From positions 1-56,831 of the forward strand of contig WQTE01000001.1 of NCBI GenBank assembly GCA_009786445.1: a stretch of 56,831 bases of DNA, read 5' to 3'. Positions within the stretch are counted from its first letter, which is position 1; every line of letters begins with the position of its first letter. This DNA comes from Oscillospiraceae bacterium (lineage in GTDB: Bacteria; Bacillota; Clostridia; Oscillospirales; Oscillospiraceae). The position numbers and the translations under genes are program-made. The notes beneath the pieces were generated by a model. The model did no database searches and was not told the origin of the DNA. It saw nothing but the letters and a program-made list of their open reading frames with translations. This document shows, one piece after another, positions 10,264-30,888 of this stretch.

Positions 10264-10460
10264 TATAGCCGCAAGCCAGTCCCTGTGAAAATGATTGTGT
10301 CTTAGGCGTAGCAAATTAGCGACTCACGGCGAAATTTCGGAAAAGTGCTCGCACTGTCTGAGCGAAGCGAGTTTGCGAGCACCCGAAATGAGCCGATGAG
10401 TCGCTTTTTGCGGATGCCGTTAAGCAATCATTTTCACAGGGACTGGCTTGCGGCTATATC
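10262..10460. repeat. 199-nt palindromic intergenic element with 36-nt perfect terminal inverted repeats
   Basis: 10262-10297 (GATATAGCCGCAAGCCAGTCCCTGTGAAAATGATTG) is the exact reverse complement of 10425-10460. The 127-nt core is itself an imperfect palindrome. Fills the convergent gap and overlaps the eda 3' end. Confidence 0.85.
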
Positions 10461-11069: not shown

Positions 11070-12028
11070 TATACTTTCCCTTTATACTTTTTCGCTGCTG
11101 TTTCCATCAACATATAGAATGCCTGTCCTTCTGAAGCATAACCGGAGTGGTCAAAGTGGGGAGCTCCGCAGACTTCAGTGACTAAGCCGTATCTGTCAAT
11201 TTTTGTGTTGACCGCTGCGCTCATTTTGTTTGCCGCTTCAAGATAGCATCCTTTATCCAGTAATCCTTCGGCAAGTCCCCTGTAGATGGTGTATGCCATC
11301 ATTTGCGGGAAGTTTGTCTCAACGAAAGTTTCGGGATTATCTAAAACATCGTGGAAAAGACCATCTTCACGCATATGTGGAAGTGCACCATCAAGCAATG
11401 TTGTAATTTTACCCAAGAGTTTTTTTCTCTCTGTTCCCGCGCTTTCGGGCAGAGCCGAAAGCACTCTCATTATTCCCGCCAGTGCCCAGCCATTTCCTAC
11501 GCCCCAGACATCGCTGCGTATGAATTTCTTTTCATTTTCGTTATACATATGTCCCAGCAGGTTTTTTTTGGGGACAAATAAAGTATCCCAATAGCCGTCG
11601 ATTTGTTTTATGGCTTCTTTATAGTTACCTGCCGCAGCGAGGTAAGGGGGGAGCATATATACTGAATCTATCCAAAACTCCGGCTTATCCATCACGTGAT
11701 ACAAGATTCCATCTGCGCTTCTCGGCGCAGTTTCCAAAACCCATCTATCGAGCTTTTCCAGCGCATCTTTAAATATTGGGTCGCCGGTTTTTTCGTATGC
11801 AAATAATATTGGCTCACCGGCGGCTACAGGGTCTGTCACTGCGTTATGATGTCCAATCATAGCAGGTCGCCCATCGTCAATTTGACGATGGACGGCCTCT
11901 CGTGCCAAGCAAATAGTTTCCTCTTCGTCTCCGCATTCTAAAAACGCCTGAGCCACAACGCCATGCTCCCAAGGATACCTTTGCATCGCCAGCGTCATGA
12001 GTTTTACCTGCTTTAGCTTATTATTCAT
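11069..12028 (-). CDS. Glycoside hydrolase family 88/105-like (unsaturated uronyl hydrolase-like)
   Basis: 319 aa (alpha/alpha)6-type pattern: RYPWEHGV, FWIDSVYMLPPY (catalytic Asp context), GVGNGWALAG. Start overlaps the eda... see note: its stop overlaps the eda start by 1 nt. Confidence 0.6.
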   Translation of the reverse strand: MNNKLKQVKLMTLAMQRYPWEHGVVAQAFLECGDEEETICLAREAVHRQIDDGRPAMIGHHNAVTDPVAAGEPILFAYEKTGDPIFKDALEKLDRWVLETAPRSADGILYHVMDKPEFWIDSVYMLPPYLAAAGNYKEAIKQIDGYWDTLFVPKKNLLGHMYNENEKKFIRSDVWGVGNGWALAGIMRVLSALPESAGTERKKLLGKITTLLDGALPHMREDGLFHDVLDNPETFVETNFPQMMAYTIYRGLAEGLLDKGCYLEAANKMSAAVNTKIDRYGLVTEVCGAPHFDHSGYASEGQAFYMLMETAAKKYKGKV

Positions 12029-12075
12029 TTAAAAAACCATTCCTTTCAGCAATCTTACGGCAAATAATGTCTGCC

Positions 12076-13614
12076 TTAAGCCTTACTTGCAAGTTCCTGT
12101 ATTCTTCCGTAAAAATCCCTTAGTTCAACGAGGTAATCTGAGTACAGCTTAACATATTTTTTGTATGTTTCGTGCATCTCCATGTTTGGTGTGTATTCTT
12201 TTTCCTTTGTGATATGTTTTTTCACGGTTTCCTTTAAGTCTCCGAACAGCCCTATACCGTTTCCTGCAAGCACAGCGGCTCCCCACATCGCACAATCACT
12301 ACGATTTATCGTGAAATACGGGCGCGCTGCAACATCTGCACTCATCTGTGACCACACCGGATTCTTTGCTCCGCCGCCTATTATACGGACAGGTGTACCC
12401 TTATATTCGGGGTATATCCTATCTTTGCTCTGTATTGCAAGGGCTAGGTCATAGGTGAACGACTCCAGTAACGCACGATAAAAATGCTCTGTACCGTGAC
12501 TCCAATCAAAACCCATCCACATTCCGCGCAGAATGCCGTCAGAAGGCATTGAGCTTCCGCTCAAGAGACCTATTGACATAAGTCCGTTGCACCCGGGTGT
12601 GAGGTCTGCAATCTTGCTGTCCAAATCACGGAAAACTGCGCCCAGATCCTCGCCCTCTTTACGCACAAACGTGTTTACATACCAGTCAATTGTAATGCCC
12701 GACCCTGCCGCAAAATGCACTGTGTAAAACTCTCCCGGAACAGGAGACGCCATTGCATCAAATCTTCCGTATTCGGAATCTGCACGGTATTCAGGCACAC
12801 AACATGAAATCTGCCCGTAGGACGATGCTTCAAACACACCGTCTCCCGGTTCGACCGCCGCAGAGCCCAAACAACCCGCTGCTTTGTCGCCCGCACCTGA
12901 AACTAGTGCGATTCCCTGCTTTAATCCTGTAATTTTTGCCGCTGATGCTGAGAGCTTGCCGCAAACCGTATTAGAAGTGACAACACGCGGCAAAAACTTC
13001 TTATCAAGCCCGATTGCATCACAGGTTTTATCCGACCAGTCATCGGCATTAACATCACATAATCCCGTCCATGCCGAATAGGTACGATCCATTACGGCAT
13101 CTTCGATGTCCAGCTCACCGAGTCGCCCGATAACATAGCCGGAAATCATAAGATACTTGGAGATTTTTTTAGCCTCGTCGGGAAATTCTGTTTTGAACCA
13201 CTCATATTTTGGTGCCATCTGAGGGAAATTCGTGCCTCCCACGCGCAAGAAATGGTCTTTCAGCGTTTCCATCTGCCTGTTGGCATACGGCATATAGCGG
13301 CTATCCAGTGAGCATGACCAGGTTGTTATGTCATTCCAATCCTTGTCCACACCCATAAATCCCGCCATCTGCCCTGTAAACGCTACGGCAGCAACATCCC
13401 CGGATCTATCACCCAGCTTTTGTACCGTCTTTTTCATACAGGCAACAACAGACTCATAGAGTTCCTCACCCTTTTGGATAAAGATGCCCGGCCCAGGTCG
13501 GTAGTCTTTGACACTTTCGATAGCCTCTGTTATGAACTCACCTGCTTCGTTGTAAACTCCAACCTTGATGAAACTGGTTCCCAAGTCAACAGCCATAAGT
13601 AATGTGTTTGACAT
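12076..13614 (-). CDS. FGGY-family carbohydrate kinase (xylulokinase-like)
   Basis: 512 aa. N-terminal MAVDLGTSFIKVGVY actin-fold phosphate-1 motif, and a C-terminal GGGAKNPVWSQM motif. Confidence 0.8.
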   Translation of the reverse strand: MSNTLLMAVDLGTSFIKVGVYNEAGEFITEAIESVKDYRPGPGIFIQKGEELYESVVACMKKTVQKLGDRSGDVAAVAFTGQMAGFMGVDKDWNDITTWSCSLDSRYMPYANRQMETLKDHFLRVGGTNFPQMAPKYEWFKTEFPDEAKKISKYLMISGYVIGRLGELDIEDAVMDRTYSAWTGLCDVNADDWSDKTCDAIGLDKKFLPRVVTSNTVCGKLSASAAKITGLKQGIALVSGAGDKAAGCLGSAAVEPGDGVFEASSYGQISCCVPEYRADSEYGRFDAMASPVPGEFYTVHFAAGSGITIDWYVNTFVRKEGEDLGAVFRDLDSKIADLTPGCNGLMSIGLLSGSSMPSDGILRGMWMGFDWSHGTEHFYRALLESFTYDLALAIQSKDRIYPEYKGTPVRIIGGGAKNPVWSQMSADVAARPYFTINRSDCAMWGAAVLAGNGIGLFGDLKETVKKHITKEKEYTPNMEMHETYKKYVKLYSDYLVELRDFYGRIQELASKA

Positions 13615-13687
13615 AGTAGAAAATCCTCCTGTTTAAAATTGCATAGCCGATTGCGACGCTCAAAACCGCCAGCTTCGCAATTGCCTA

Positions 13688-14737
13688 TTAGAATATTGTC
13701 CTTTCAGTAGCTTCCGGGCTTATAAATACTTTCATAAGTTTTGTGTTAGTTTGTATTTCTTTTAATGCACTTTCAAGCTCTGAGAGGGGAACAACCATCG
13801 AGTACATATGTGAAGGGTCAATCCGTTTGTATTTAAGAATACTTATTGCAACAGCCCAATCATTGCCGATACCGGCACAGGAGCCGGTAACCTTCTTCTC
13901 TCCTACAACAAACTCGAACGGTGATAATCCGGCTCTATCATCGGTAGCGCAGATACCAAAAGCAACAAGTTTTCCACCGCGACGCAGCATTGCGAAGGCT
14001 TGCTCGTAGGTCTTGCTGGTTCCAACCGCTTCAAGGACATAATCAGCCCCAACGCCACCGGTAAGTTTCATTACTTCGGCTATTGAATCGGGAGTTTGAT
14101 TAATGTTGATAAAATAATCTGCTGCCCCCATTTTGCGAGCAACCTCTAAGCGGTCAGCGTTACCATCAATAATAATAACCGGTGCCGCCCCACGAAGTTT
14201 CGCCATAGAAGCATGTAAAACGCCCAGACCTGCACCAATTACCACAACGCTTGAACCAAGTTCACAATCCATGCGTTGTGATGCCTGTATGGCGGTAGTT
14301 AAAGGCTCTACCATTGCAGCTTCATAATCATCAAGGCTGTCCGGTATCAAGAAACAATTTTTCCACGGTACTTTTACATACTCAGCAAAACCACCATGTG
14401 TATGGATACCCAATTGCGTAAATGTTTCACACAACAATTCATCGCCGCGGCGGCAGAAATAACATGTTCCGCAGGATATGCAAAGGTCTGCCGCAACCCT
14501 GTCGCCGACTTTTAACCCTTGAGCGTTTTTGCCAACCTCATCAATAATGCCCCAAAACTCATGGCCTGTGATAAGAGGTAACTTTTCTGATGCATATTTA
14601 CCTGTGAAAATACTCCAGTCAGAGCCGCAGATACCACATAACTTGACTTTTATTAATACCTCATCATCATTGATTTGAGGAATGGGAATATCTTCATATA
14701 CCATTTTGTTAGGTGATTTAACAACTTGTGCTTTCAT
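13688..14737 (-). CDS. Zn-dependent MDR dehydrogenase (sorbitol/threonine dehydrogenase-like)
   Basis: GICGSD, GHEFWG, structural-Zn Cys cluster (CISCGTCYFCRRGDELLC), GAGLGVL Rossmann motif. Start set at MKAQVV... (ATG 14737). The ORF-track extension to 14797 overlaps the upstream gene. Confidence 0.8.
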   Translation of the reverse strand: MKAQVVKSPNKMVYEDIPIPQINDDEVLIKVKLCGICGSDWSIFTGKYASEKLPLITGHEFWGIIDEVGKNAQGLKVGDRVAADLCISCGTCYFCRRGDELLCETFTQLGIHTHGGFAEYVKVPWKNCFLIPDSLDDYEAAMVEPLTTAIQASQRMDCELGSSVVVIGAGLGVLHASMAKLRGAAPVIIIDGNADRLEVARKMGAADYFININQTPDSIAEVMKLTGGVGADYVLEAVGTSKTYEQAFAMLRRGGKLVAFGICATDDRAGLSPFEFVVGEKKVTGSCAGIGNDWAVAISILKYKRIDPSHMYSMVVPLSELESALKEIQTNTKLMKVFISPEATERTIF

Positions 14738-14762
14738 CGTTTTCACTTTGCAGCCCGCCTTT

Positions 14763-15737
14763 TTATTTTGTGAATAATTTATCGTGCCTACCTTCATATG
14801 GAGCTTGAATTAACAGTGGTTTTAAAAACTCAATTGTCTTATCCATACCATCAGCACGACTCATAGTAACATCTTCATGTTCATAAGAAAGTACGCCGTT
14901 ATAGCCCACCATTGCAAGTTCGGTTATAACCTTTTTCCACTCAACGCTACCCCAGCCGGGGATGCGGAAACGATAGGTGCGGTCAAGACGTTGCCAAGAA
15001 CCTTGCATAAGGATTCCGCCATATCCAATGTTGTGGGCAACTATTTCCCCATCTTTAGCATGAACAGTAAATATGCGGTCTTTTAGCGCATTGATGTATG
15101 ATTCAACATGAAGTCCCAGGTAGATTATATTTGCAGGGTCTAAGTTGAAACCAAGGCATGGATGATTGTCCGCAAGTTCCAGCGCACGCAGAGAGGTATG
15201 AATATCATAAATAAAATTGTTTGGGTGAGGTTCAACGGCAAACTTAACGCCATATTCTTTAAACTTATCAAAAATAGGAACAAAATGTTCTGCAAAACAC
15301 TGTTCCTCATACTCCCAACCTTTTGGATATGGGAAGGGGAAATACCTTCCGAAGTTTTCAACCCCTGTAAAACCGATTACAACGTCAACTTCAAGCTCGT
15401 TGGCAAGTTGAGCAGATGCTATAAGGCTTTCAGTTCCGAATTTAATTTTCTCCTCTTTTGTTCCCTTGAAAATGCCATCGGTATCTGCACCATGAGGTCC
15501 CATAATCAACAGAGAATCTGCGTGGTTGCTTAACGCAGAAATTGATAATCCATATGACTCAATCATTTTACGCATAGCCGCAGCTTTACCATTTTTCAGC
15601 CATTCCTGCGTGTCACATTGACCGTTACCATCGTATGTTGCAATTTCAAGAGCCTCGTAACCTCTTTCAGAAACCATTTTTGCAACTTCTTCTAATGGTT
15701 TTTCTGAATAGTTTTGTGTAACAAATCCAATTTTCAA
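14763..15737 (-). CDS. Sugar phosphate isomerase/epimerase (xylose-isomerase-like TIM barrel)
   Basis: AP_endonuc_2-like pattern (FAVEPHP, HAKDGE, SYEHED). Start set at TTG 15737 (LKIGFVTQNY), preceded by a GGAGGAG RBS. The upstream 36 codons of the ORF track look non-coding. Confidence 0.7.
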   Translation of the reverse strand: MKIGFVTQNYSEKPLEEVAKMVSERGYEALEIATYDGNGQCDTQEWLKNGKAAAMRKMIESYGLSISALSNHADSLLIMGPHGADTDGIFKGTKEEKIKFGTESLIASAQLANELEVDVVIGFTGVENFGRYFPFPYPKGWEYEEQCFAEHFVPIFDKFKEYGVKFAVEPHPNNFIYDIHTSLRALELADNHPCLGFNLDPANIIYLGLHVESYINALKDRIFTVHAKDGEIVAHNIGYGGILMQGSWQRLDRTYRFRIPGWGSVEWKKVITELAMVGYNGVLSYEHEDVTMSRADGMDKTIEFLKPLLIQAPYEGRHDKLFTK

Positions 15738-15789
15738 ACTATATCTCCTCCATTTTGCCAATGTGTATTCATGCCTATCATTGTCATAT

Positions 15790-15803
15790 CGTTTTGCAAA
15801 ACG
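15790..15803. promoter_or_regulatory. Perfect 14-bp palindrome CGTTTTGCAAAACG (operator candidate)
   Basis: Self-complementary 14-mer about 50 nt upstream of the TTG start of the TIM-barrel gene, downstream of the SDR terminator hairpin. Confidence 0.35.
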
Positions 15804-15825
15804 CCAAGGAATAGTATACCTCCTA

Positions 15826-15873
15826 AGAGTAAAAATAATATCCACTTACTTGCCCCGCAGGAGCAGGGCAAGT
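15826..15873 (-). terminator. Candidate intrinsic terminator downstream of the SDR gene
   Basis: Minus-strand stem ACTTGCCC / GGGCAAGT (15848-15855 / 15866-15873), followed by a T-rich tract (..TATTATTTTTAC). Confidence 0.5.
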
Positions 15874-15905
15874 ATAGTGTAAAAAATGAATGTGCGGCGC
15901 TTATT

Positions 15906-16667
15906 TTATTTCTCTTGATTAGGTTGACCGTTCCACGCTGAAAGACCGCCGTCAACAGGCAAGTTCACACCACACATATGGTCTGCCGCATCTGATGCGA
16001 GAAATACTATTGCGTTTGCACAGTGTTCAGGCTCGCAAAGCCTCTTGTCGGGCATGTTCTTTCTGAAACTCTCTAAAACTGCCTCGGATGCGCCTGTGAG
16101 GAACATAGGAGTTTTGACAGCACTCGGAGAAACTATATTGACTCTTACGCCTTGTACAGAGTAGTCCATCGCCATCGCTCTTGACATCGCATGAACCGCG
16201 CCCTTGGTTGCGCAATAGAGCGACATATTGTAGTCCCCGCCCATTCCGGATACAGACGATACATTGACTATTGCACCTTTTTTCTTCGCTAACATTTGCG
16301 GTGCTAAAGCCTTACAAGTGTTGAAAACACCTCTCACGTTTATGTCAAACTGGAAGTCATAATCGTCCATCGGTGCTTCATGCAACAGACCTACGCGGAA
16401 TACTGCGGCGTTATTTACAAGCACATCGCATCCACCGCTTGCCTTTACGTCCGCTGCCAGTGCATCTACTTCGGCAGGCTTGGAAACATCCAGTGTTTTC
16501 ATAGCCACCTTGTCTCCGAATGTTTTAGCAAATTCGTCATACGTTTCTTTCAGGGTTTTTTCGTTGTAATCTGCGAGAAAAACTTTGTCGCCAAGTTCAA
16601 GGAATTGCTTTGCTGTAGCCTTTCCTATACCGCTGGCACCCCCGGTCACTACTACGTTTCTTGCCAT
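15906..16667 (-). CDS. SDR-family oxidoreductase (KduD/FabG-like)
   Basis: TGGASGIGKA cofactor motif, NNAAV, catalytic S...YCATKGAV (YxxxK). Only 50 nt downstream of the last BMC-P gene, with no terminator in between. Confidence 0.85.
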   Translation of the reverse strand: MARNVVVTGGASGIGKATAKQFLELGDKVFLADYNEKTLKETYDEFAKTFGDKVAMKTLDVSKPAEVDALAADVKASGGCDVLVNNAAVFRVGLLHEAPMDDYDFQFDINVRGVFNTCKALAPQMLAKKKGAIVNVSSVSGMGGDYNMSLYCATKGAVHAMSRAMAMDYSVQGVRVNIVSPSAVKTPMFLTGASEAVLESFRKNMPDKRLCEPEHCANAIVFLASDAADHMCGVNLPVDGGLSAWNGQPNQEK

Positions 16668-16717: not shown

Positions 16718-16975
16718 TTATTTATAATCAATTGTATAGTGGTCAATAACTCCGCAAATCGTTATGTCTGCCACAATGTCCCTATCTCCCAACACCATAT
16801 TGCTTGCCCCACCGTCAGCAACAACGAGAACAGTGTCGCCAACGCCCGCATCTGCAACATCAAATGCGATTTCACGGCTACCGCTCTCGTTTTCAACTAT
16901 CATGAGTTTGTGCCCGGAAAACGATTCATCTTTAACTGTTGAAACTACGTTCCCTACTACTTTTGCAATTCGCAT
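16718..16975 (-). CDS. BMC vertex pentamer protein (BMC-P, EutN/CcmL/PduN family), paralog 3
   Basis: 85 aa. MRIAKVVGNVVSTVKDESFSGHKLMIV... is the typical EutN/CcmL N-terminal beta-barrel pattern. Confidence 0.85.
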   Translation of the reverse strand: MRIAKVVGNVVSTVKDESFSGHKLMIVENESGSREIAFDVADAGVGDTVLVVADGGASNMVLGDRDIVADITICGVIDHYTIDYK

Positions 16976-16978
16976 ATT

Positions 16979-17245
16979 TTACAGTTCCTCGTTGTAGCTG
17001 TCGATAAAACCTACTATTGCGGCATCGGCAGGTACCAACGGTTGCCTAAACACGCGAGAGGCTTCCTTTGAACCTATCAGATAGACAAAGTCGCCACTCC
17101 CGGCTTGCCTTGTCGCATCGGCAGCCACAATCAGCTTGGTCTTTTTACCATTTTCTATAAGTCTTACTACCAGAAGAGGCACACCTTCCAAGCCCTCAGA
17201 CTTGACAGAAGATACGACCGTTCCGCTCACTTCTCCAGTGTACAT
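16979..17245 (-). CDS. BMC vertex pentamer protein (BMC-P), paralog 2
   Basis: 88 aa. ..GEVSGTVVSSVKSEGLEGVPLLVVRL...VAADATRQAGSGDFV..IVGFID matches the EutN/CcmL pattern. Confidence 0.8.
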   Translation of the reverse strand: MYTGEVSGTVVSSVKSEGLEGVPLLVVRLIENGKKTKLIVAADATRQAGSGDFVYLIGSKEASRVFRQPLVPADAAIVGFIDSYNEEL

Positions 17246-17246
17246 A

Positions 17247-17558
17247 TCACTCGCTCCCGCCTACCTGCGCCTTATCGAATATCCGCGCTCCGCTAACATC
17301 GATATGGTCAATTATCGCCACAATCGAGTTATCCACCGGTTTTCCGTCGGTAGCATTCGTTTGACGTGAAGAACTTCCACTTACAGTCATTACCACTTCT
17401 CCGGTACCTGCACCAACTGTGTCAACACTCACCAGCAATGGTCCGGTTTCCTTAAACGAATCTAAGTCAATCGCCCGGACCAAAAGCAACTTCATGCCCG
17501 AAAGTTTTTCGGTTTTGTTTGTGCTTACTACTGTGCCAACAACCCTGCAAATTTGCAT
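17247..17558 (-). CDS. BMC vertex pentamer protein (BMC-P), paralog 1
   Basis: MQICRVVGTVVSTNKTEKLSGMKLLLVRAI...VDTVGAGTGEVV..IVAIID. Start taken at the internal ATG 17558. The ORF track starts at 17579. Confidence 0.8.
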   Translation of the reverse strand: MQICRVVGTVVSTNKTEKLSGMKLLLVRAIDLDSFKETGPLLVSVDTVGAGTGEVVMTVSGSSSRQTNATDGKPVDNSIVAIIDHIDVSGARIFDKAQVGGSE

Positions 17559-17597
17559 ACTAATGACCATTCCTTTCACTTGGATGCTTCATGCAAC

Positions 17598-18659
17598 CTA
17601 GTCTTCCGGCTTGAACAAAACCTTTGTAAATACTTCCGTTCGGTTAAACATCATTTCAAACGCTTTTTGACCATCTTCCAAACGATAACGGTGTGTAATC
17701 AGCGGGTTGACTTTAATTGCGCCCGACTGCATGAATCTAAGCGCTGTCTCCCATTCATGTATTGGTAGTGGGTTTGGCAATGAATTCCACGATCCGCGTA
17801 TGGTTATTTCGCCGCGTAATATGTGGGCAATCGCATCGTTGGGATAAACTACGTCGTCATATGTTATACCGCAATAGATGACCGTTCCGCTTTTCTTTGC
17901 TGATTGAAGAGACTGTACATATGTGATTTTGTTGCCTGCCAGTTCGACTGCTGTATCTACTCCGCCCGAAGTCAGTGCAATAATCTCCTTGACAGGGTCC
18001 TCCTGCATTGCGTTAATGCCTTTTGTTGCGCCCAAGCGTTCGGCAAGCCTAAGCTTTTCATCAGAAATATCAACCGCATAAACAGTTGTGTAGCCGAGTG
18101 CTCTAAACCATTGAACGGTCATATAGCCAATCGCGCCCATACCATACACTGCGGCAGAACCTCCTGCTTCCACTGTTCCGCTCTGGCGAACAGCGTGCAG
18201 TGCAACGGACATCGGGTCAGCCATGCAACCCATTTCATAGTCAACATTTGAAGGCAACTTCAAGCAATTTGCAGATTCTATCACTATGTATTCCGCCATT
18301 GCGCCATCGCGGCGTGAACCATAATAGTCGTAATTATCGCACATATGGTATTTTGCCGATTTGCAATACTCACAAACACCGCAAGGTATCATCGGTAATG
18401 CAGTCACTCTGTCGCCTACTTCAACGTTTTTAACACCGGAACCTATTTCAAGAACCTCACCTGCAAATTCATGTCCGATTGTTGTCGGGAAACTGTAGGT
18501 GCCTTTGACCATAACGCGTGCTATGTCAGAACCGCAAACCCCGCAGCTTTTAACTTTTACAAGTACCTGTGAGTCTTTCTCTATTACAGGCACATCTACC
18601 TCAACGCAACGTATATCACCGGGAGCAAAAAGGCGCAGTGCTCTCATTTTTGAAGCCAT
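17598..18659 (-). CDS. Zn-dependent MDR alcohol/polyol dehydrogenase inside the BMC operon
   Basis: CGVCGSD, GHEFAG, structural Zn cluster (CGVCEYCKSAKYHMC), GMGAIG Rossmann motif. No obvious terminal extension. Confidence 0.8.
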   Translation of the reverse strand: MASKMRALRLFAPGDIRCVEVDVPVIEKDSQVLVKVKSCGVCGSDIARVMVKGTYSFPTTIGHEFAGEVLEIGSGVKNVEVGDRVTALPMIPCGVCEYCKSAKYHMCDNYDYYGSRRDGAMAEYIVIESANCLKLPSNVDYEMGCMADPMSVALHAVRQSGTVEAGGSAAVYGMGAIGYMTVQWFRALGYTTVYAVDISDEKLRLAERLGATKGINAMQEDPVKEIIALTSGGVDTAVELAGNKITYVQSLQSAKKSGTVIYCGITYDDVVYPNDAIAHILRGEITIRGSWNSLPNPLPIHEWETALRFMQSGAIKVNPLITHRYRLEDGQKAFEMMFNRTEVFTKVLFKPED

Positions 18660-18674: not shown

Positions 18675-19481
18675 CTAATACGCCGTGCCGGCAGCGGCAG
18701 GTTTTCCGGTCGATTTTCCACAGGCTCCGCAGACAATTACAACACCGGAGCTTGTTCCTAAGCGGTTTGCACCTGCATCTATCATTGCTTTTGCTGTTGC
18801 AGCCTCTTTAATGCCACCGGAAGCTTTAACTCCGATTTCACTGCCTACAACCTTGCGCATCAAGCTGACATCTTCCACAGTTGCTCCACCGGTGGAAAAC
18901 CCTGTAGAGGTCTTAACGAAGTCTACTCCGACCATTTTACAGATAGCGCATACACGCACTTTTTCCTCATCGGTCAGCAGACTTGTTTCGATAATTACTT
19001 TGAGCAAAGCACGTCCTGACACCGCCATATAAATCGACTCTATGTCGTTTTTGACATAATCCCAGTCGCCTGATTTGACAGCACCAACGTTTATTACCAT
19101 GTCGACTTCTTTTGCGCCGTTTTCGACTGCTTCTCTTGCTTCGTACACCTTGGTTTTTGTGGTTGTCGCACCGAGTGGGAAGCCTATAACGGTGCAAACT
19201 TTTACATCGCTGCCTTTAAGGCAATCGCGACTAAGCGGAACAAACCAAGGGTTTACGCAAACCGAAACAAATCGGTGCTCCATCGCTTCTTTGCACAGCT
19301 TTTTGACATCACTCTCTGTTGCTTCTGCTTTGAGCAATGTGTGGTCAATAAAGTTGCAAAATCCGCTGTTCTTGCAATTTGAAGAACTTCCACCACTGCT
19401 CCCTGTATTAAGAGATTTTTCGTTGCGCAGTTTTTGGTATATCTCTTCAGTTATTTTTTCAATTAATAAATCCATGTCCAT
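18675..19481 (-). CDS. deoC: Deoxyribose-phosphate aldolase (DERA) with about 43-aa N-terminal extension (encapsulation-peptide-like helix + Gly/Ser linker)
   Basis: Core [11 protein letters not shown]...VCVNP...[10 protein letters not shown]...LKVIIET...[15 protein letters not shown]...GVKASGG is collinear with Firmicutes DeoC, including the Schiff-base Lys context VKTSTGF. It is preceded by [34 protein letters not shown]. Confidence 0.9.
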
Positions 19482-19550
19482 GTCTATCGTATTTCATCCC
19501 TTCTTATAGCATTTTTACTCAAACAACTACCGAATCCTCGGTGTCGTGAC

Positions 19551-19829
19551 TTATTTGCCTTTGGGGAGAATTTTTTCCACGTCTTCATGCGGGCGCGGAA
19601 TAACATGTACAGATACCAATTCGCCGACACGCTTTGCTGCTGCTGCTCCTGCTTCCGTGGATGCTTTAACTGCACCAACATCGCCGCGTACCATGACTGT
19701 GACGAGTCCGCTACCGATTTGCTCTTTGCCCAGAAGTGTGACATTTGCAGCTTTTACCATTGCATCTGCTGCCTCAACTGCTCCCACGAGACCTTTTGTT
19801 TCTACCATTCCTAATGCTTGCTTTTCCAT
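19551..19829 (-). CDS. BMC shell hexamer protein (BMC-H, PduA/EutM-like)
   Basis: 92 aa. [53 protein letters not shown]... is a canonical single BMC domain. Confidence 0.95.
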
Positions 19830-19893: not shown

Positions 19894-20400
19894 TTATGAA
19901 GGCAAAATGATTTCCACTTCTTCATGGGGACGCGGTATTACGTGTACCGATACAAGCTCCCCAACGCGCTTGACTGACTGTGCACCTGCTTCGACCGCCG
20001 CTTTGACTGCGCCGACGTCGCCGCGCACCATAACAGTGACCAGACCGCCGCCTACCGTCTGCTTGCCTACAAGGCTAACATCGGCAGCTTTTACCATCGT
20101 ATCCGCAGCTTCAATTGCGCCTACGAGTCCGCGGGATTCTACCATACCCAGTGCTTCCAGTTTCATTGCTCTCCCCTCCTTTCCTGTTTTTACGGGAACT
20201 TCGCTTTTTGTTACTTTTGCCGTCGTTGCATTTTTTGTTGCCGCTGCGGGTGCAGTTTTCGTTGCCGCTACACTTGCCACTGCGGGCGAAGTTTTGGTTG
20301 TAGCCGCGCTTTTCTTTTCGGGTGCAGCTACGCTTTTTGTTGCAGTTGCAGTTGCGGTTGCAGCTTTCGTTGCAGTCGCGCTTTTCTTAGTCACCGCCAT
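19894..20400 (-). CDS. BMC-H shell protein with 78-aa Ala/Thr/Lys-rich N-terminal extension (alternative short form from ATG 20166)
   Basis: C-terminal 90 aa ([35 protein letters not shown]...) is a canonical BMC-H. The upstream in-frame 78 codons are low-complexity A/T/K. Strong RBSs precede both ATG 20400 (AAGGAGGG) and ATG 20166 (AGGAGGGG). Confidence 0.8.
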
Positions 20401-20413: not shown

Positions 20414-20959
20414 TTATATCAATGCTTCGCGGATAGATTCATGCGGAGCAGGAATAACTGATGTACGCGCTATCATTCCTTCACATTCCGGGACAGATTT
20501 TCCGACCCGTACAGCTTCGCTTACCGCACTAACATCTCCGGTTAGCACAACATATGATTTTCCGCCTAATCCGCGCCCCAGCCGTATTTCTATCAGCAAT
20601 ACGTCCGCCGCTTTGACTGCGGCATCTGAGGCATGAATACATGAGGCAAGGGAAAATGTCTCTATTACACCAATCGCTCCGGTTTCCGGAATCTCCGCTG
20701 CGCCGTTTATAGCCTGAAATACTTGTTTATGTACATTCGGAATCAGCAAACTATCGACAATATTCTCGGCACCCGTCGCAACTCCGGCTTCCACTGAACT
20801 TTTGACAGCGGCAACACTGCCGCGCACCATAACGACAAACTTACCCGAACATACGGGATTTGCCGCAGTAAGCGTTGTCGCCGCAACTTTAAGCATACTG
20901 TCTCCGGCTTCTATTCCGGCTGCAATGCTATTGAGTTCTACCAGTCCCAGTGCATCCAT
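20414..20959 (-). CDS. pduT: Tandem-domain BMC shell protein (BMC-T, PduT-like)
   Basis: 181 aa with two BMC domains ([22 protein letters not shown]..., [22 protein letters not shown]...). Cys37 in NPVCSGKF is in register with the pore [4Fe-4S]-ligand Cys of PduT. Confidence 0.8.
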
Positions 20960-22302
20960 TATGCGTTTCCTCCTACAGCTTGTATTTCAACAAATCCATT
21001 GTCCACTGCCGCCACCACACCGGAGATACTGGCGTGGACATTAGCTCCCAGTTGACCTTCGGGTATGTTTCCGATTATATCACCCGGCTTAACCGATTGC
21101 CCTTTTTTCACACAAGGGGTGCACGGTGCTCCGATATGTTGTTTGAGTGGGATTTTTACACGCTCTGTCTTAATTGGCTCACGTTCCATAGGTGCGGGTA
21201 CATCGTAAGCACGAATTCCCAATCTGCTGACGAGTCGGCTTACAGGCAGATTCTTGACGGTGCGCTCGGCTGACACTCCTATCGACTCTTTATTCTCAAA
21301 CGGAACTTTTTTCTTAAGAAGCTCGCTTTTTAGCATTCCCATAATTCTGCTCGGTAATAGTTCCATCGTGCAAGCGAAGTATGAACATATCCCGCATTCG
21401 CAGCAACTTATCACTTGCTCGGGGACCATGCCGTCGCCGCTTCCGAAAGCTATCGCTCTCATCGCCTTGTGCGGCGATGTTTGCTGTCCCAGGGTGTTTC
21501 GGGGACACATCAGTGTGCATTGGTTACATCCGCAACACGCCGCACGGCTGAGCTTTATCTGGCTTTGCAGTGGCGAGGTCTTTTTGGTTATTAGCCCGTG
21601 ATCCTTTTTCAGCACTATGATGCCACCCAGGGTTTTGGTTACAGGTGTGTCCCAATCTGATGTGACTGCTCCCATTGCAGGACCACCGAGCAGTAGCGCA
21701 TACTCTTCTTCGTTTGCCGGACCGTCGGCATACTCAACCAGCTTACGTACAGACGTTCCGATTGGTGCTAAAACCGTAACCGGTTTACTTACCTCTCCTG
21801 TAATCGTCACATACTTGTGAGTAACAGGGTTATCATCCATTGCCTCTGCAACGTTTACGAGCGTATTGACATTTAGCACCACCGCGCCTTTGGCTATCGG
21901 TATACCGCCGACAGGAACTACCTCTCCGGTTACTTCATATACAAGTGCCTGTTCATCTCCGGCAGGGTAATAGTTGCTAACGGTAAGTAGCGAAATGTCC
22001 TTTTTTGTGTCAGAAATAACTTTTTTCAGGCTCTTGACGGCTTGTTTGTATTTTTCTTTCAAGCAGATGACACCGCGCTTCGCACCTGCCAGTTCCATCG
22101 CAATGTCCACGCCTTTTACAACTTGAGCCGCATAATGTTCCATAATTTGCTGATCAACCCGCAAAAGCGGCTCGCACTCTGCGCCGTTTGCTATAATCAC
22201 TTGCGCCTGCGCCCCAAGTTTAACATGGGTCGGGAAGCCTGCGCCGCCTGCGCCGACGATTCCTGCCGCACGTATTTTTTCAATGTGTGATGTCGCAGCC
22301 AT
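20959..22302 (-). CDS. pduS: PduS-like flavo-iron-sulfur protein (RnfC/NuoF-like, 2x[4Fe-4S])
   Basis: 447 aa. GAGGAGFPTHVKL nucleotide/FMN motif, and two ferredoxin-type Cys clusters (CCGCNQCTLMCP; CCECGICSYFAC). C-terminal barrel-sandwich-like segment. Its stop overlaps the BMC-T start by 1 nt. Confidence 0.75.
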   Translation of the reverse strand: MAATSHIEKIRAAGIVGAGGAGFPTHVKLGAQAQVIIANGAECEPLLRVDQQIMEHYAAQVVKGVDIAMELAGAKRGVICLKEKYKQAVKSLKKVISDTKKDISLLTVSNYYPAGDEQALVYEVTGEVVPVGGIPIAKGAVVLNVNTLVNVAEAMDDNPVTHKYVTITGEVSKPVTVLAPIGTSVRKLVEYADGPANEEEYALLLGGPAMGAVTSDWDTPVTKTLGGIIVLKKDHGLITKKTSPLQSQIKLSRAACCGCNQCTLMCPRNTLGQQTSPHKAMRAIAFGSGDGMVPEQVISCCECGICSYFACTMELLPSRIMGMLKSELLKKKVPFENKESIGVSAERTVKNLPVSRLVSRLGIRAYDVPAPMEREPIKTERVKIPLKQHIGAPCTPCVKKGQSVKPGDIIGNIPEGQLGANVHASISGVVAAVDNGFVEIQAVGGNA

Positions 22303-22344: not shown

Positions 22345-23778
22345 TTAAAGAATGTAGAACGAACCTGACAGGGCGCATCTTCGGGCACGCACAAAGCTCT
22401 TTGCCGAGGTAACGCCTTCCCCTGTAGGTGTTGCAATTGTAAGACTTGTATGACCTTCTCCTTCAAGTCCCAGCCCCGCAAACGATGGTGCATTTTTCAC
22501 AAAAATCGTTGTATCGAGTGCTCTTGCAGCAATCGTGAGGTTATCAATGTTCTTTGAGTGCATTATTGCTGTGTGGAGGTATCCGTTTTCTGCGGCTACC
22601 GCCCTTTTCACGGCTTCTTCAAAACTTCCAACCGATACTATGGGTAACACAGGCATAAGCATTTCTGTTGTGACAAGTGGATGTTCCGCCTTGCATCTGC
22701 ATATTATGAGAACAGGCTCGCCACTATAGTTTATTCCGCAGCTTTTGAGGATATGTGTTGCGCTGCGCCCTACGAAATTTTTATTTGCAGCCAGTCCGTG
22801 TTTTGTTTCGGCAATAACGGTACGGGCAATAATCTCAACTTCCCTTTCGTCAGCTAAGTAGCATCCTGCCGCAACCATGTTCTCAACCAATCTACTTTCA
22901 ACACTGCTTACAACAAAGACTTCTTTTTCAGCTATGCACATTACGTTATTGTCAAATGATGCCCCGCGGGTGATGTCTTTTGCGGCTTTTTCTATGTCAG
23001 CAGTTTCGTCAACTATAACAGGAGGATTCCCGGGACCTGCCGCTATGACTTTTTTGCCGCTTCTCATCGCAAGGTTTACAACAGCCTCTCCGCCTGTTAT
23101 CGCGAGCATTCTTATTTGTGCGTGTTCCATCAGTTCTTTGCCTGTCGCTGCCGAGGGCTGCACAACAGTGCCTAAAAGGCTTGATACTCCGCAGGTTTCT
23201 CTGATTGCTCTGTTAAGTATTTTTACAGCTTCGTTTGATGCATTTTTCGCACCCGGATGCGGATTAAATACCACTCCGTTTGCTCCTGCAATCATGCTCA
23301 AACTGTTATTGATAATTGTGGCTGTGGGGTTTGTAGACGGTGTAATAGATCCGATTACGCCATACGGCGCATGTTCAATCAAAGTTAGTCCATTGTCACC
23401 GGAATATGCTGTCGGGATAAAGTCTTCCAAACCCGGGGTTTTTTCTGCGGCAACGCGATTTTTCGCAATTTTGTGTGCTACAACGCCATAGCCTGTTTCC
23501 TCATGCGCCAGCTTCGCAAGAAGCTCTGCATTATCTACAGCGGCACGGCGCATGGCTTCAATGACCTCTGCGCGTTTTCTGACAGGTAACCTACTAAACT
23601 GCGCTTGACTCTCAGAAACCGCTGAAACTGCTTGACTAATGGTTTCGTAGACACCATCCTCCCGGACAGTGTGAGCAGAAAATGCTCCGGGCACAGGCGC
23701 GTTGGCACCGTTGATGCCGTCAGTGCTTACTCCCATTTCAAGCAATATTTCTTTAATTTGGGTGTCAGTCATTCCCAT
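22345..23778 (-). CDS. CoA-acylating aldehyde dehydrogenase (PduP/EutE family) with N-terminal encapsulation-peptide-like helix
   Basis: 477 aa. Catalytic Cys context FDNNVMCIAEKEVFV, and EutE/PduP-like length. The N-terminus MGMTDTQIKEILLEMGV resembles PduP/EutE targeting helices. Confidence 0.85.
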   Translation of the reverse strand: MGMTDTQIKEILLEMGVSTDGINGANAPVPGAFSAHTVREDGVYETISQAVSAVSESQAQFSRLPVRKRAEVIEAMRRAAVDNAELLAKLAHEETGYGVVAHKIAKNRVAAEKTPGLEDFIPTAYSGDNGLTLIEHAPYGVIGSITPSTNPTATIINNSLSMIAGANGVVFNPHPGAKNASNEAVKILNRAIRETCGVSSLLGTVVQPSAATGKELMEHAQIRMLAITGGEAVVNLAMRSGKKVIAAGPGNPPVIVDETADIEKAAKDITRGASFDNNVMCIAEKEVFVVSSVESRLVENMVAAGCYLADEREVEIIARTVIAETKHGLAANKNFVGRSATHILKSCGINYSGEPVLIICRCKAEHPLVTTEMLMPVLPIVSVGSFEEAVKRAVAAENGYLHTAIMHSKNIDNLTIAARALDTTIFVKNAPSFAGLGLEGEGHTSLTIATPTGEGVTSAKSFVRARRCALSGSFYIL

Positions 23779-24179
23779 TATACACTGCTCTCCTCATTTA
23801 TGATTTCCATTCCCAACTCGCGTGCTCTGTCCGCTGCGAGTGGTGTAATTATACAGTTTTTTCCGATATTCAGTACAGTCTGCCCTGACCTATGCAGAGA
23901 AATTATGTCGTCCTCAAGCAGTAATTCGCTTCGCACTTCACTGCTGTTTTGTTTTCCCTTTGTGTTGCAGCAGCCATCGCATATTTTAAGCTCTGATTCT
24001 ACGATTTCTCTGAGCAACTGCTTCAAAAGCTTAAAAAGGTCGGCTGATATTTTCACTTTATCGCCCTTGCCTGAGCAGCAACCTTGACCAAGTGCTTTTG
24101 GTGCTTCGGCAACTCTATTTTTCACGCCGAACCTACTCTCGGTATCTTCAACCAAACGTTTTATCTCTGCATCAGTCAT
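23778..24179 (-). CDS. Small Cys-rich BMC-associated protein of unknown function
   Basis: 133 aa. Two GCCxxKG motifs (GCCSGKG, GCCNTKG), each next to an amphipathic helix (AEIKRLVEDTESRF; DLFKLLKQLLREIVE). C-terminal ..IITPLAADRARELGMEI module. Its stop overlaps the AldDH start by 1 nt. Confidence 0.6.
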   Translation of the reverse strand: MTDAEIKRLVEDTESRFGVKNRVAEAPKALGQGCCSGKGDKVKISADLFKLLKQLLREIVESELKICDGCCNTKGKQNSSEVRSELLLEDDIISLHRSGQTVLNIGKNCIITPLAADRARELGMEIINEESSV

Positions 24180-24200: not shown

Positions 24201-24800
24201 CTAATCCGGCATTAAAATCTCTATGCTCTGCCCATCCGTAAGCCCCGCTGCTGTGGCTTCATCGCTGTCGAGATGTAGCTCCACGCACTCTTTCTCACTT
24301 ATGCGCACAAGCACCTCTTCAAAAATCATTTTCCGCTCACCACTGTTCACAGCGGCACAAAGCTTTTGTCCATCCGATAAACGGTATATAGTCGCATACT
24401 CACGAGATATGTACAGACTCCGCGCCGATGCAGCAGCACCATGTTCCAAAACAACTTCCCCTTGCGGTCCGCGTAATATGCACTTTGCGCATTTGCCAAA
24501 ATCCCCGTTAAAAACTCGTAAACCTTTTATTCCTATTTGTAATGCTTCGGTAAAACTTATGTTTACCAGTGTTTTTTCGTATTTACCCGAAGCTGTCACA
24601 ACCTGTTTTAGTGTGTTTTTTGGTCCGCACACATCCAGTGTGCCTATAGACCCGCTCCCAAAAAGAGTCTGCTTGTCTGCCGGGCTTAGGTGAACATGAG
24701 TCGGCATAACAACCGTCCGGGCATACAATCCTTCCCCCGCTTTGGCAAAAGCCGCAAACAATCCCATTTCAACTCGGCATTTCAGCTCATCTTTCTGCAT
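24201..24800 (-). CDS. pduL: PduL-type phosphotransacylase (divergent second repeat)
   Basis: 199 aa. First-repeat motif PTHVHLSPADKQTLFG and C-terminal GERKMIFEEVLVRISEKECVELHLDSDEATAAGL match PduL. The second-repeat RHIHM position reads RSLYI. Confidence 0.75.
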   Translation of the reverse strand: MQKDELKCRVEMGLFAAFAKAGEGLYARTVVMPTHVHLSPADKQTLFGSGSIGTLDVCGPKNTLKQVVTASGKYEKTLVNISFTEALQIGIKGLRVFNGDFGKCAKCILRGPQGEVVLEHGAAASARSLYISREYATIYRLSDGQKLCAAVNSGERKMIFEEVLVRISEKECVELHLDSDEATAAGLTDGQSIEILMPD

Positions 24801-24852: not shown

Positions 24853-25602
24853 TTATATGCTTCCCAGAATCTCGTTCATGCTCTCCGGAGCCAGGCTCGC
24901 ACCACCTATTAAAAATCCATCAACACCATCAAGTGCAGCCACACCAGCAATATTATCCGGCTTAACGCTGCCACCGTATAGTAGCGGAACCTTGGAGCCT
25001 TGTTCGCCAAATTGCTCTATCAGAACCCTGCGTATCCAACCCATCGTCTCACTTATCTGCTCGGGACCTGCGATTTTCCCTGTGCCTATTGCCCAAATCG
25101 GCTCGTAAGCGATGATTAGCGGCGATATCTTCGCACCAATGAGCCCGCCAATAATCTGACGGCAGAGAACTTTGTGATATTCGCCACTTTCACGCTCCTG
25201 CAAAGTCTCCCCTATACATACCAGCGGGGTTATGCCGTTTCGCTGTGCGGCACGGACTTTTAGGTTAACCTGTATGTCGGTTTCGTGGAACATGCTACGG
25301 CGTTTGCTATGCCCTATAATAACGTGGGTTCCTCCTGCATCAAGCAGCATTTCTGCTGATATTTCGCCTGTATATGCGCCATCTTTTTCCCAGTGCATAT
25401 TTTGCAGACCCACCACAATATTCTTCTTTTTCGCAGTTGCACTGATTAAAGGCAAAGCTGTCGCCGGAACAAAAAGCATTATCTCTATTCCATCCCTGCA
25501 CTCCGGCCTAAGGGCATTAAAATATTCTTTCGCCTCCGTCCCGGTCATATACATTTTCCAGTTTCCGGCAACTATTAAATTTTTGTTTTTACCCTCACTC
25601 AT
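24853..25602 (-). CDS. tpiA: Triosephosphate isomerase (operon-dedicated paralog)
   Basis: 249 aa. AGNWKMY (Asn/Lys), IIGHSKRR (His), AYEPIWAIGTG (Glu), YGGSVKP. First gene of the BMC operon. Confidence 0.9.
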   Translation of the reverse strand: MSEGKNKNLIVAGNWKMYMTGTEAKEYFNALRPECRDGIEIMLFVPATALPLISATAKKKNIVVGLQNMHWEKDGAYTGEISAEMLLDAGGTHVIIGHSKRRSMFHETDIQVNLKVRAAQRNGITPLVCIGETLQERESGEYHKVLCRQIIGGLIGAKISPLIIAYEPIWAIGTGKIAGPEQISETMGWIRRVLIEQFGEQGSKVPLLYGGSVKPDNIAGVAALDGVDGFLIGGASLAPESMNEILGSI

Positions 25603-25686: not shown

Positions 25687-25729
25687 TAGTTTTTTATTAT
25701 ATCATATGTGAATTTTGTCTCTGTATTTC

Positions 25730-25758
25730 TTGACAAAACCTTATGCGAGCTGTATCAT
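25730..25758 (+). promoter_or_regulatory. Sigma-70-type promoter of the divergent kinase-isomerase-lacI unit
   Basis: TTGACA (25730-25735), 17-nt spacer, TATCAT (25753-25758). About 38 nt upstream of ATG 25796. Confidence 0.6.
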
Positions 25759-25795
25759 AATTCTATTGTTTATTACTGCATGGAGGTTTGCACAT

Positions 25796-27298
25796 ATGGC
25801 AGAAAAAGTGTACATTTTATTCGATTACGGTGCCAGCCACGGAAGATGCATAGCTGCGAAGTTTGATGGTGAACGGATTTGCATGGAAAGCATCTATGAG
25901 TTCGACAACGTTGCTGTTAATTACGCAGGGGTTTTGTATTGGGATATCCTGCGCCTCTCGAGCGAATTGAAGGAAGGACTCAAAAAAGCCTGTAGCTTAT
26001 ACCCCCAGGCTGTATCAGTGGGCATTGATACATGGGGCTGTGATTTTGCATTTATCGACAAACACGGCAAACTTCTTTCAAACCCTGTAAATTACCGTGA
26101 TGAAGCGCGTTATAGGTATAAGGACGATTTGGATAACACCATTTTTGGTAGTGAATATGAAGTGTTTAAGCTTGGCGGGGCAAACACAAACAGCATAATG
26201 TCGCTTTATGAGCTTTACGCAAATAAAAGGGATGATTCATCTGCTCTCAAAAATGCGGATAGATTGCTTATGATGCCCGATTTGCTCAATTATTTTCTGA
26301 CCGGCATTCCCACAAACGAATACACAAATGCGACAATGACATTGATGGTCAATCAAACGGAGAAAAAATGGGAGCAGTCGTTTATTGAGCGTTTGGGTTT
26401 GCCTTCTCATATATTCGGCGACCTTATAATGCCGGGCACAAAGATTGGCAATATCCAGAGCAGAGTCGCCGAAGAACTAAATATTCCTGCGCTTCCTGTG
26501 ATAAACGTAGCCACACACGATACTGCAAGTGCCATTGCGGGTGTGCCGCTCAGTGGGAGCGGTAATTGGGCGTTTTTGAGTCTCGGCACTTGGATGATAC
26601 TTGGTGTTGAGAGCAATAAGGTCTATAGTGACGAAAAAACCTTCGCAACCGGATTTGGCAATCAAGGCGGGTGTGAGGGTAAAAATAATTTGGTCAATTT
26701 GGTCACCGGATTATGGGTATTGCAACAATGTTATGAACGTTGGTGCGCAGAAGCGGGTTCTCGACTCGGCTGGGAAGCCGTGAATAAAGCAGTTGCAGAT
26801 GCCCCTGACCCCGGTCTTGCTTTTATCGATTTGGATGCCGCTGAGTTTGTCCATCCAAACCCAAATATGCCGAGTGTCGTGCAGCAATACTGTTCGGCAC
26901 GCAATATGCCCGTTCCCCAAGGGATGGGGGCAATTGCAAAATGCATCAACAACAGTCTTGTACTCAAGGTTAAGAGTTGTTATCACGATATGGTTGAGCT
27001 GACAGGTGCTGAAATAGACACTCTTTACCTCTTTGGGGGCGGCTCAAAAAACAGATTTATATGCCAAGGTGTCTCAGATGCTCTGGGTGTGAAGGTCAAA
27101 GCAGGTCCTGCTGAGACAACTTCAGTTGGCAATGTACTGATGCAGATGATGGGAACAGGTGCCATTTCATCGCTTTCCGAAGGGCGCATAATTTCGGCTA
27201 AGTCCTCCGAGTCGGAAATTGTCGAGTATTCGCCGGGAGATACCGCTAAATGGGTATCTTACTATGAAAATTACAAAAAAATAATGTTTGAGGAGTAG
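25796..27298 (+). CDS. FGGY-family carbohydrate kinase (rhamnulokinase-like)
   Basis: MAEKVYILFDYGASHGRC... and overall pattern resemble RhaB-type FGGY kinases. GGAGG RBS before ATG 25796. The ORF-track start at 25715 overlaps the promoter. Confidence 0.7.
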   Translation: MAEKVYILFDYGASHGRCIAAKFDGERICMESIYEFDNVAVNYAGVLYWDILRLSSELKEGLKKACSLYPQAVSVGIDTWGCDFAFIDKHGKLLSNPVNYRDEARYRYKDDLDNTIFGSEYEVFKLGGANTNSIMSLYELYANKRDDSSALKNADRLLMMPDLLNYFLTGIPTNEYTNATMTLMVNQTEKKWEQSFIERLGLPSHIFGDLIMPGTKIGNIQSRVAEELNIPALPVINVATHDTASAIAGVPLSGSGNWAFLSLGTWMILGVESNKVYSDEKTFATGFGNQGGCEGKNNLVNLVTGLWVLQQCYERWCAEAGSRLGWEAVNKAVADAPDPGLAFIDLDAAEFVHPNPNMPSVVQQYCSARNMPVPQGMGAIAKCINNSLVLKVKSCYHDMVELTGAEIDTLYLFGGGSKNRFICQGVSDALGVKVKAGPAETTSVGNVLMQMMGTGAISSLSEGRIISAKSSESEIVEYSPGDTAKWVSYYENYKKIMFEE

Positions 27299-27304
27299 TA
27301 TTAT

Positions 27305-28462: not shown

Positions 28463-28469
28463 CTTCTTT

Positions 28470-29498: not shown

Positions 29499-29523
29499 CA
29501 GGGGCTGTTGCCCCGGAAGCGCA

Positions 29524-29568: not shown

Positions 29569-29590
29569 TGCCTTGTTTTAATTCGCCGTG

Positions 29591-30865: not shown

Positions 30866-30888
30866 ACCTTGGGTTTCACAGGGGTCGC

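Follow-up and report, generated by a model that had tools for sequence, protein, structure and literature searches.

What does a DERA (deoxyribose-5-phosphate aldolase) gain from some 40 extra residues at its N terminus, and why does its gene lie among genes for microcompartment shell proteins? The question is raised by a locus of an Oscillospiraceae bacterium (GenBank assembly GCA_009786445.1), within positions 1 to 56,831 of contig WQTE01000001.1, a 56,831-nucleotide stretch that is hereafter called the window. An initial annotation had proposed that this aldolase is the encapsulated signature enzyme of a bacterial microcompartment (BMC); this proposal now has computational support from the makeup of the N terminus, the shell genes nearby, and the literature on SPU microcompartments. 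We conclude that the extension is very likely a functional encapsulation peptide (EP) on an active DERA of an SPU4-type sugar-phosphate microcompartment. Judged by sequence, DERA would be the aldehyde-generating signature enzyme of that compartment in a Clostridia-like Firmicute. The gene and its parts are the following; pLDDT is the per-residue confidence of an AlphaFold2 (AF2) model.

18675..19481, minus strand: DERA (DeoC) gene, 268 amino acids plus stop codon; open reading frame (ORF) with a TIGR00126 score of 294.7 bits and a match to PDB entry 8qps at E = 8e-83.
19425..19478, minus strand: probable EP helix, residues 2 to 19; AF2 pLDDT of ~80, top hydrophobic moment, pattern kept in 57 homologs.
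19362..19424, minus strand: Gly/Ser-rich flexible linker, residues 20 to 40, containing C36 (C42 is just beyond); pLDDT below 50 at residues 26 to 38, variable among homologs.
18732..19361, minus strand: TIM-barrel core, residues 41 to 250, with D127, K161, K190 (Schiff base), and K219; pLDDT above 90, alignment to E. coli DeoC, invariant columns.
18678..18731, minus strand: C-terminal tail, residues 251 to 268, with C251-x-x-C254 and the terminal Tyr268; low pLDDT, the Tyr shared with E. coli (Y259).
19497..19503, minus strand: Shine-Dalgarno-like GAAGGGA, 15 nt upstream of the ATG; spacing compared with that of other operon genes.

The identity of the enzyme is clear. The ORF begins with ATG, and its product is the same sequence as that quoted in the initial annotation. 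Residues 43 to 249 match the equivalog model TIGR00126 (deoC), for which the cutoff is 117.3 bits, Pfam DeoC is matched as well, and 8qps, itself a DERA, is the best match among solved structures. Pairwise alignment pairs D127, K190, and K219 with E. coli DeoC D102, K167 (the Schiff-base lysine), and K201, and all three are invariant in an alignment of 66 homologs; K190 lies in the context DFVKTSTGF. All four residues expected of DeoC (catalytic Asp, Schiff-base Lys, second Lys, and C-terminal Tyr) are thus present, and the active site is intact, as the initial annotation had read it. The gene is predicted to encode a catalytically competent class I aldolase. Its core is 57 to 66% identical to the DERAs of Lysinibacillus, Clostridium, and Caldifermentibacillus, and because core identity to housekeeping DERAs reaches 60 to 66%, the enzyme likely cleaves 2-deoxyribose-5-phosphate. 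The nearest named relatives come from metagenome-assembled genomes of Clostridia, namely, Defluviitaleaceae (74% identity) and Oscillospiraceae.

What sets the protein apart lies ahead of the barrel. Solved DERA structures align with it from residues 35 to 44 onward, the best matches from 41 to 43; solved chains of untagged length have 2 to 12 residues ahead of the aligned region, and a few chains carry longer N-terminal segments. Likewise, 44 residues precede the IDHT motif of the window DERA, compared with 6 to 25, and most often 6 to 8, in non-BMC Firmicutes DERAs. The true extension therefore amounts to ~37 to 40 amino acids. The initial annotation was right that an extension exists, and its figure of "about 43" extra residues was slightly too high.

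The AF2 model, which was built with the 66 homologs and has a mean pLDDT of 88.1, places a helix at residues 2 to 19, a disordered stretch after it, a TIM barrel from about residue 41 to 252, and a low-confidence tail beyond. The highest helical hydrophobic moment of the whole protein is found at residues 6 to 19. The maximum for any 14-mer is 0.67, compared with 0.40 ± 0.12 in shuffled sequences (P = 0.0125, corrected for selecting the stretch), and the peak falls at 90 to 100 degrees per residue, which is alpha-helical periodicity. The hydrophobic face of the 18-residue helix is composed of M3, L6, I7, I10, I14, Y15, and L18, and 10 of the first 22 residues are acidic or basic. The initial annotation had described an amphipathic N-terminal helix followed by a flexible Gly/Ser linker and had suggested a structure prediction of residues 1 to 45 as a check; both elements appear in the model, the helix being further backed by its moment and its conserved pattern, and the linker by its poor conservation and variable length.

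Conservation follows the same division. In 57 extended homologs, hydrophobic residues occupy positions 3, 6, 7, 10, 14, 15, and 18 in at least 93% of sequences, and polar or charged ones occupy positions 2, 4, 8, 9, 12, 13, 16, and 17 in at least 96%; position 10 is Ile in 93%. The most common residue has a mean frequency of 0.64 across helix positions, compared with 0.81 for the core and 0.25 for the linker. Among these homologs, linkers of 11 to 36 amino acids occur, in 19 distinct lengths that all keep the frame. By definition, an EP combines a terminal amphipathic helix some 18 residues long with a disordered linker of poor conservation, and the window DERA has just such a helix on a poorly conserved flexible linker, in a terminal extension that its non-BMC homologs lack.

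Does the extension track shell genes? We compared 85 DERA loci, of which 80 come from named genomes, taking the longest in-frame DERA ORF at each, searching the available flanks for shell genes by tblastn, and calling a protein extended when its alignment-anchored N terminus was at least 30 amino acids long. Extended DERAs had shell genes nearby at 30 loci and none nearby at 17, while short DERAs had them at 0 loci and lacked them at 38 (Fisher P = 3.9e-11). For instance, loci L001 and L002 encode extended homologs in BMC loci syntenic with the window, while L003 and L004 encode close but short DERAs in non-BMC contexts. EP-like helices are also present on the DERAs of L031, L033, and L081.

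Some extended DERAs belong to a different, longer type of 65 to 105 amino acids, consisting of a helix plus a V..GA.RI element, which occurs in Ignavibacteria (L039, L046, L060, and L061), Acidobacteriota (L055, L068, L069, L077, L078, and L080), and Bacteroidetes (L071). Cys clusters, MCGCTSECFHRCP and YCDEGICAPCGHC among them, are frequent in these proteins. The flanks available for these loci yielded no shell genes, and the DERA genes may serve distant BMC loci as satellite cargo genes. A separate case is L009 of Faecalicatena contorta ET52, in which the DERA (~10001-10741) has an EP and a tail that stops just short of the Cys-motif position described below. No shell genes were found within 10 kb on either side of it, and the gene may be what remains of a BMC locus since lost.

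In the window, the DERA gene stands between shell genes in a tightly packed minus-strand operon. The other members are listed in operon order, DERA itself falling between the second BMC-H gene and the Zn-dependent dehydrogenase gene.

24853..25602, minus strand: triosephosphate isomerase (TPI); PF00121 at E = 4e-82, match from residue 10, no N-terminal extension.
24201..24800, minus strand: PduL-type phosphotransacylase (PTAC); PF06130.
23778..24179, minus strand: eut_hyp-type protein of 133 amino acids with an EP-like N-terminal helix (TDAEIKRLVEDT); TIGR02536 match at the C terminus.
22345..23778, minus strand: acylating aldehyde dehydrogenase (AldDh) with an EP-like N-terminal helix (TDTQIKEILLEM) and linker; NF011927 at 614.7 bits, Pfam Aldedh from residue 44.
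20959..22302, minus strand: PduS/RnfC-like Fe-S flavoprotein; Complex1_51K, SLBB, Fer4_17, and RnfC_N domains.
20414..20959, minus strand: tandem-domain BMC-T(s) shell protein, PduT-like, with a PVCSGK motif, adjoining the PduS homolog; two BMC domains.
19894..20400, minus strand: BMC-H shell protein of 168 amino acids with an Ala/Thr/Lys-rich N-terminal extension of ~80 residues; Pfam BMC over residues 83 to 158.
19551..19829, minus strand: BMC-H shell protein of 92 amino acids; Pfam BMC at E = 2e-29.
17598..18659, minus strand: Zn-dependent medium-chain dehydrogenase directly downstream of DERA, no EP; ADH_N and ADH_zinc_N.
16718..17579, minus strand: BMC-P (EutN/CcmL) triplet at 17247-17579, 16979-17245, and 16718-16975; PF03319 three times.

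N-terminal helices similar to that of DERA are found on AldDh and the eut_hyp protein, and none is found on TPI or the Zn-dehydrogenase. The locus was placed among BMC subtypes by comparing its gene content with Supplementary Data 2 of Sutter et al. (2021). According to that work, SPU4 loci occur mostly in Bacillales and Clostridiales and hold AldDh, a pfam01791 protein, PTAC, TPI, and a eut_hyp protein, with N-terminal EPs on AldDh and most pfam01791 proteins; the N-terminal extension of the eut_hyp protein, 30 to 40 amino acids long, is likewise an EP, and a PduS-associated BMC-T(s) occurs in 14 SPU4 loci. The window has the pfam01791 aldolase and the aldehyde dehydrogenase with shell genes, PTAC, TPI, an EP-bearing eut_hyp protein (TIGR02536), a BMC-P triplet, two similar BMC-H proteins, the optional PduS-associated BMC-T(s), no BMC-T(dp), and a Firmicutes host. 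It thus fits the published SPU4 description nearly point for point. A component lacking from the locus is the RpiB-type isomerase (RPI; pfam02502), which was found neither among 40 proteins from the larger ORFs of the window that were scanned for domains nor in the syntenic loci L001, L002, and L005. Because RPI is present in 18 of 29 curated SPU4 loci and absent from the other 11 (Dwyer, Sutter and Kerfeld 2024), its absence does not exclude SPU4.

Several features of this neighborhood deserve mention in their own right. The extension that precedes the BMC domain of the 168-residue BMC-H protein is of low complexity, and since equivalents in related loci are 104 to 138 amino acids long, its length varies. 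The PVCSGK motif of the BMC-T protein resembles that of PduT, and its sequence suggests an Fe-S cluster at the pore that might serve as an electron conduit across the shell. An 86-amino-acid ORF at 19484-19744 overlaps the smaller BMC-H gene in another frame and was taken as spurious. The Zn-dehydrogenase keeps its place after DERA in L001 and L002; it was considered as a conserved DERA partner and rejected as a defining feature because it follows DERA in only 4 of 30 shell-containing loci. Farther out (10434-16667, minus strand, and 25715-35944), the operon continues unbroken with an SDR gene and genes for a xylose-isomerase-like TIM barrel, a Zn-dehydrogenase, an FGGY kinase, GH88, and a KDPG aldolase, and in the flanks are genes for another FGGY kinase, a LacI regulator, a ribose-type ABC transporter, and RbsD/FucU. 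The 40 scanned proteins include no PfkB deoxyribokinase. The DERA feedstock may be a sugar or polyol instead of, or besides, DNA-derived deoxyribose.

How might the extension work? The first ~40 residues would form an 18-residue amphipathic helix tethered to the TIM barrel by a disordered Gly/Ser linker of ~21 residues. The hydrophobic face of the helix may bundle with the like helices on AldDh and the eut_hyp protein, dock on shell hexamers, or do both. We infer that dimeric DERA would thus be drawn into a cargo core that is later enclosed by the shell, where AldDh and PTAC would convert the trapped aldehyde while PduS and BMC-T handled redox balance.

Several observations weigh against an EP that delivers an aldolase to this compartment. 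Measured over a fixed 18-residue stretch (residues 4 to 21), the hydrophobic moment is not significant in the shuffle test (P = 0.10), and therefore the case rests mainly on conservation and context. As to context, 17 of the 47 extended DERAs have no shell gene in the available flank, although these exceptions include short contigs as well as the longer extension type of Ignavibacteria and Acidobacteriota. The spacing from GAAGGGA to the ATG is 15 nt, compared with 11 to 13 nt in neighboring operon genes, which is long for this operon, though still compatible. The genes on either side suggest uptake of a sugar or polyol and not an obvious deoxyribose route, and the substrate is assigned from homology alone. 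Finally, the SPU6 DERA of Chloroflexi bacterium GWB2_54_36 is the only SPU DERA that has been characterized biochemically (Dwyer et al. 2024), and its extension is built differently: it spans ~70 amino acids, with a helix of ~25 to 30 residues and two beta strands, compared with the ~40 amino acids, 18-residue helix, and disordered linker of the window DERA. The sole experiment on any SPU DERA extension is the deletion of this one, which renders the enzyme soluble; cargo targeting is deduced. Nevertheless, the extension remains very likely to be an EP for the reasons given above.

The alternative that survives best holds that the helix is purely a module for cargo-cargo condensation or oligomerization, which makes no contact with the shell and relies on another protein for recruitment. 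EPs of metabolosome enzymes have been reported to self-associate as trimeric bundles and to drive condensation, full-length SPU6 DERA aggregates in E. coli while the truncated form is soluble, and three proteins of the window operon bear similar helices. Condensation and shell binding are not exclusive, however; the published view allows either or both, and the computed evidence presented here does not separate bundling from shell binding. We regard condensation as the only role of the helix as somewhat unlikely.

A second explanation turns on cysteines. The extension and the tail might together form a metal, Fe-S, or redox-switch site (C36, C42, C251, and C254) that controls the tail bearing Tyr268, besides or instead of targeting. 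The tail had struck the initial annotation as unfamiliar, and this was partly correct: after the RLGTS motif it has 24 residues, ~9 more than the median of 15 in non-BMC DERAs, and its CxxC is unusual, while DERAs canonically have a flexible, Gly-rich tail with Tyr as its last residue. The terminal Tyr of E. coli DeoC (Y259) has been reported to move into the active site when the enzyme is closed, and a terminal Tyr is found in 29 of 38 short and 38 of 47 extended DERAs. The cysteines of the window DERA form a 2+2 arrangement, with C36-x5-C42 as the linker pair and C251-x-x-C254 as the tail pair (segments 18678-18731 and 19354-19376, minus strand), which is kept, C-x5-C spacing included, in the two closest relatives, P0002 and P0003.

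The pattern extends beyond these relatives. At least two cysteines in the linker or tail are present in 35 of the 47 extended DERAs, and in 22 of the 47 the tail has CxxCxxCxxxC just ahead of its terminal Tyr; by comparison, none of the 38 short DERAs has any tail Cys. The full ferredoxin-type motif, CxxCxxCxxxCP, appears in the tails of many DERAs from Christensenellaceae, Synergistaceae, and Lachnospiraceae, and the tail of relative P0104 exceeds the Pfam gathering cutoffs for Fer4_7 (31.4 bits; cutoff, 27) and Fer4 (24.9 bits; cutoff, 21.1). Cys clusters were noted in relatives P0104 and P0028 and at loci L007 to L020, L024, L035, L049, and L084, among which L019 is the cultured Christensenella hongkongensis HKU16, whose DERA has the full motif. 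Elsewhere in the window operon, the eut_hyp-type protein (23778-24179, minus strand) holds two Cys clusters, GCCSG and CDGCC, so that the locus has Cys-rich disordered segments on at least two of its putative cargo proteins.

Taken as a mechanism, such a Cys site would gate the tail Tyr so that aldolase activity follows the redox state of the lumen, possibly together with the co-encoded PduS flavoprotein and PduT-like BMC-T; in a DERA dimer, two single Cys motifs could jointly form a two-cluster, ferredoxin-like unit. Several points argue against it. The window DERA itself has no Fer4 match at E ≤ 1 and lacks the 4Fe-4S ferredoxin-type motif. Relatives P0005 to P0010, which are ~75% identical and are encoded in BMC loci, carry no Cys in the linker or tail, so the family can do without these cysteines. 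In the AF2 model both segments are disordered, and so is the tail of P0104 in its own model (pLDDT below 50), which carries little information because cofactors are missing from a monomer model. Moreover, the helix of the window DERA contains no Cys, and its conservation is independent of Cys content. That this site explains the extension is therefore rather improbable. We give similarly little credence to the broader proposition that BMC-associated DERAs have repeatedly gained Cys clusters on the disordered segments flanking the barrel, with an Fe-S cluster, a metal, or a redox disulfide gating the tail Tyr. The tail and linker cysteines of SPU DERAs are absent from the accounts of Sutter et al. 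(2021) and Dwyer et al. (2024), and a literature search on DERA, microcompartments, and 4Fe-4S clusters returned nothing relevant. The Cys motif, an unproven lead, is the one element here that might be new.

A third explanation, that the amphipathic helix is a membrane anchor placing DERA near the sugar ABC transporter encoded in the window, is very improbable and was rejected: the helix is highly charged with a narrow hydrophobic face, it is the same in kind as the EPs on AldDh and the eut_hyp protein, and the extension tracks shell genes, not transporters.

The last alternative is that the start was miscalled, so that the extension is not translated and the true protein begins near the DERA core. 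Two facts speak for it, namely, the 15-nt Shine-Dalgarno spacing and the database entries of close homologs, which often start near the core (e.g., P0039 at 219 amino acids). Such short entries are wrong, and the same artifact has been met in the literature, in which automated annotation is said to truncate the SPU DERA extension often (Dwyer, Sutter and Kerfeld 2024). The DERA of BMC locus L005 (7869-8660), for example, is annotated at 219 amino acids, while its full ORF encodes 263, beginning MDKNLDMDLLIERITDEIYRKL, with the same helix. GenBank entries for BMC-locus DERAs are cut to about 219 to 225 amino acids at L005 and for P0088, P0021, and P0014. In the window, the reading frame is closed by a TGA five codons upstream of the DERA ATG (19481). 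It holds no ATG or GTG from M3 to the IDHT motif, and the only TTG encodes L49 within the conserved IDHTLLK strand. Because this sole candidate codon lies within the motif, an internal start that removes the extension and keeps the barrel is not available. The strongest support for translation is evolutionary, in that the helix is conserved as protein in the 57 homologs and linker indels keep the frame. A miscalled start is hardly credible, and we rejected it.

An EP on the aldolase of an SPU4-type microcompartment is thus the reading that we retain, and it is not a novel one, because the EPs of SPU4 and other SPU DERAs were published in 2021 and 2024 (Sutter et al. 2021; Dwyer et al. 2024). 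The window is an ordinary, good example of these systems. The finding mainly confirms an SPU4-type sugar-phosphate microcompartment in the window, with the aldolase as its targeted signature enzyme, and is useful for annotation because gene callers often trim the extension. It also provides a compact, ~40-amino-acid EP for engineering. If the idea about the cysteines were true, the presence, in BMC-associated enzymes only, of a ferredoxin-like Cys motif on a class I aldolase's catalytic tail would represent a new redox or metal control of cargo activity, and it could be approached in the cultured C. hongkongensis HKU16.

The window DERA can be compared with several known systems. It shares its catalytic residues, and a flexible tail that terminates in Tyr, with the housekeeping DeoC of Firmicutes and E. 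coli; the housekeeping enzymes differ in having 6 to 25 residues before IDHT, tails of 14 to 15 residues without Cys, and no shell genes nearby. With the EPs of PduP and PduD, for which targeting has been demonstrated experimentally, it shares the layout of a terminal amphipathic helix (~18 residues) joined to a disordered linker of low conservation. In those peptides the hydrophobic face is critical, and the central Ile (I10 of PduP) carries the most weight; position 10 of the window helix is also Ile. The window EP, by contrast, is known from computation, and the cargo enzyme and the BMC type are different; the likeness is one of pattern only.

Among SPU microcompartments, DERA is regarded as the universal signature enzyme, and every SPU DERA has an amphipathic N-terminal extension that non-BMC DERAs lack; without it, SPU6 DERA becomes soluble (Dwyer, Sutter and Kerfeld 2024). 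The window DERA has in common with SPU6 DERA its BMC association, the D/K/K catalytic residues, and such a helix. SPU6 DERA also forms a complex with RPI, whereas the window extension has no strands in the AF2 model and the locus encodes no RPI partner. The closest likeness is to the SPU4 DERA loci. The window departs from these in having a TPI without an EP, a Zn-dependent dehydrogenase after DERA in place of the pfam00465 alcohol dehydrogenase, no RpiB-type isomerase (a minority state), and tail and linker cysteines that the published descriptions do not mention. In common with them, it has AldDh, PTAC, TPI, an EP-bearing eut_hyp protein, a BMC-P triplet, two similar BMC-H proteins, and a PduS homolog next to a BMC-T(s), as well as the N-terminal EP on the aldolase and, in close homologs, the truncated database starts.

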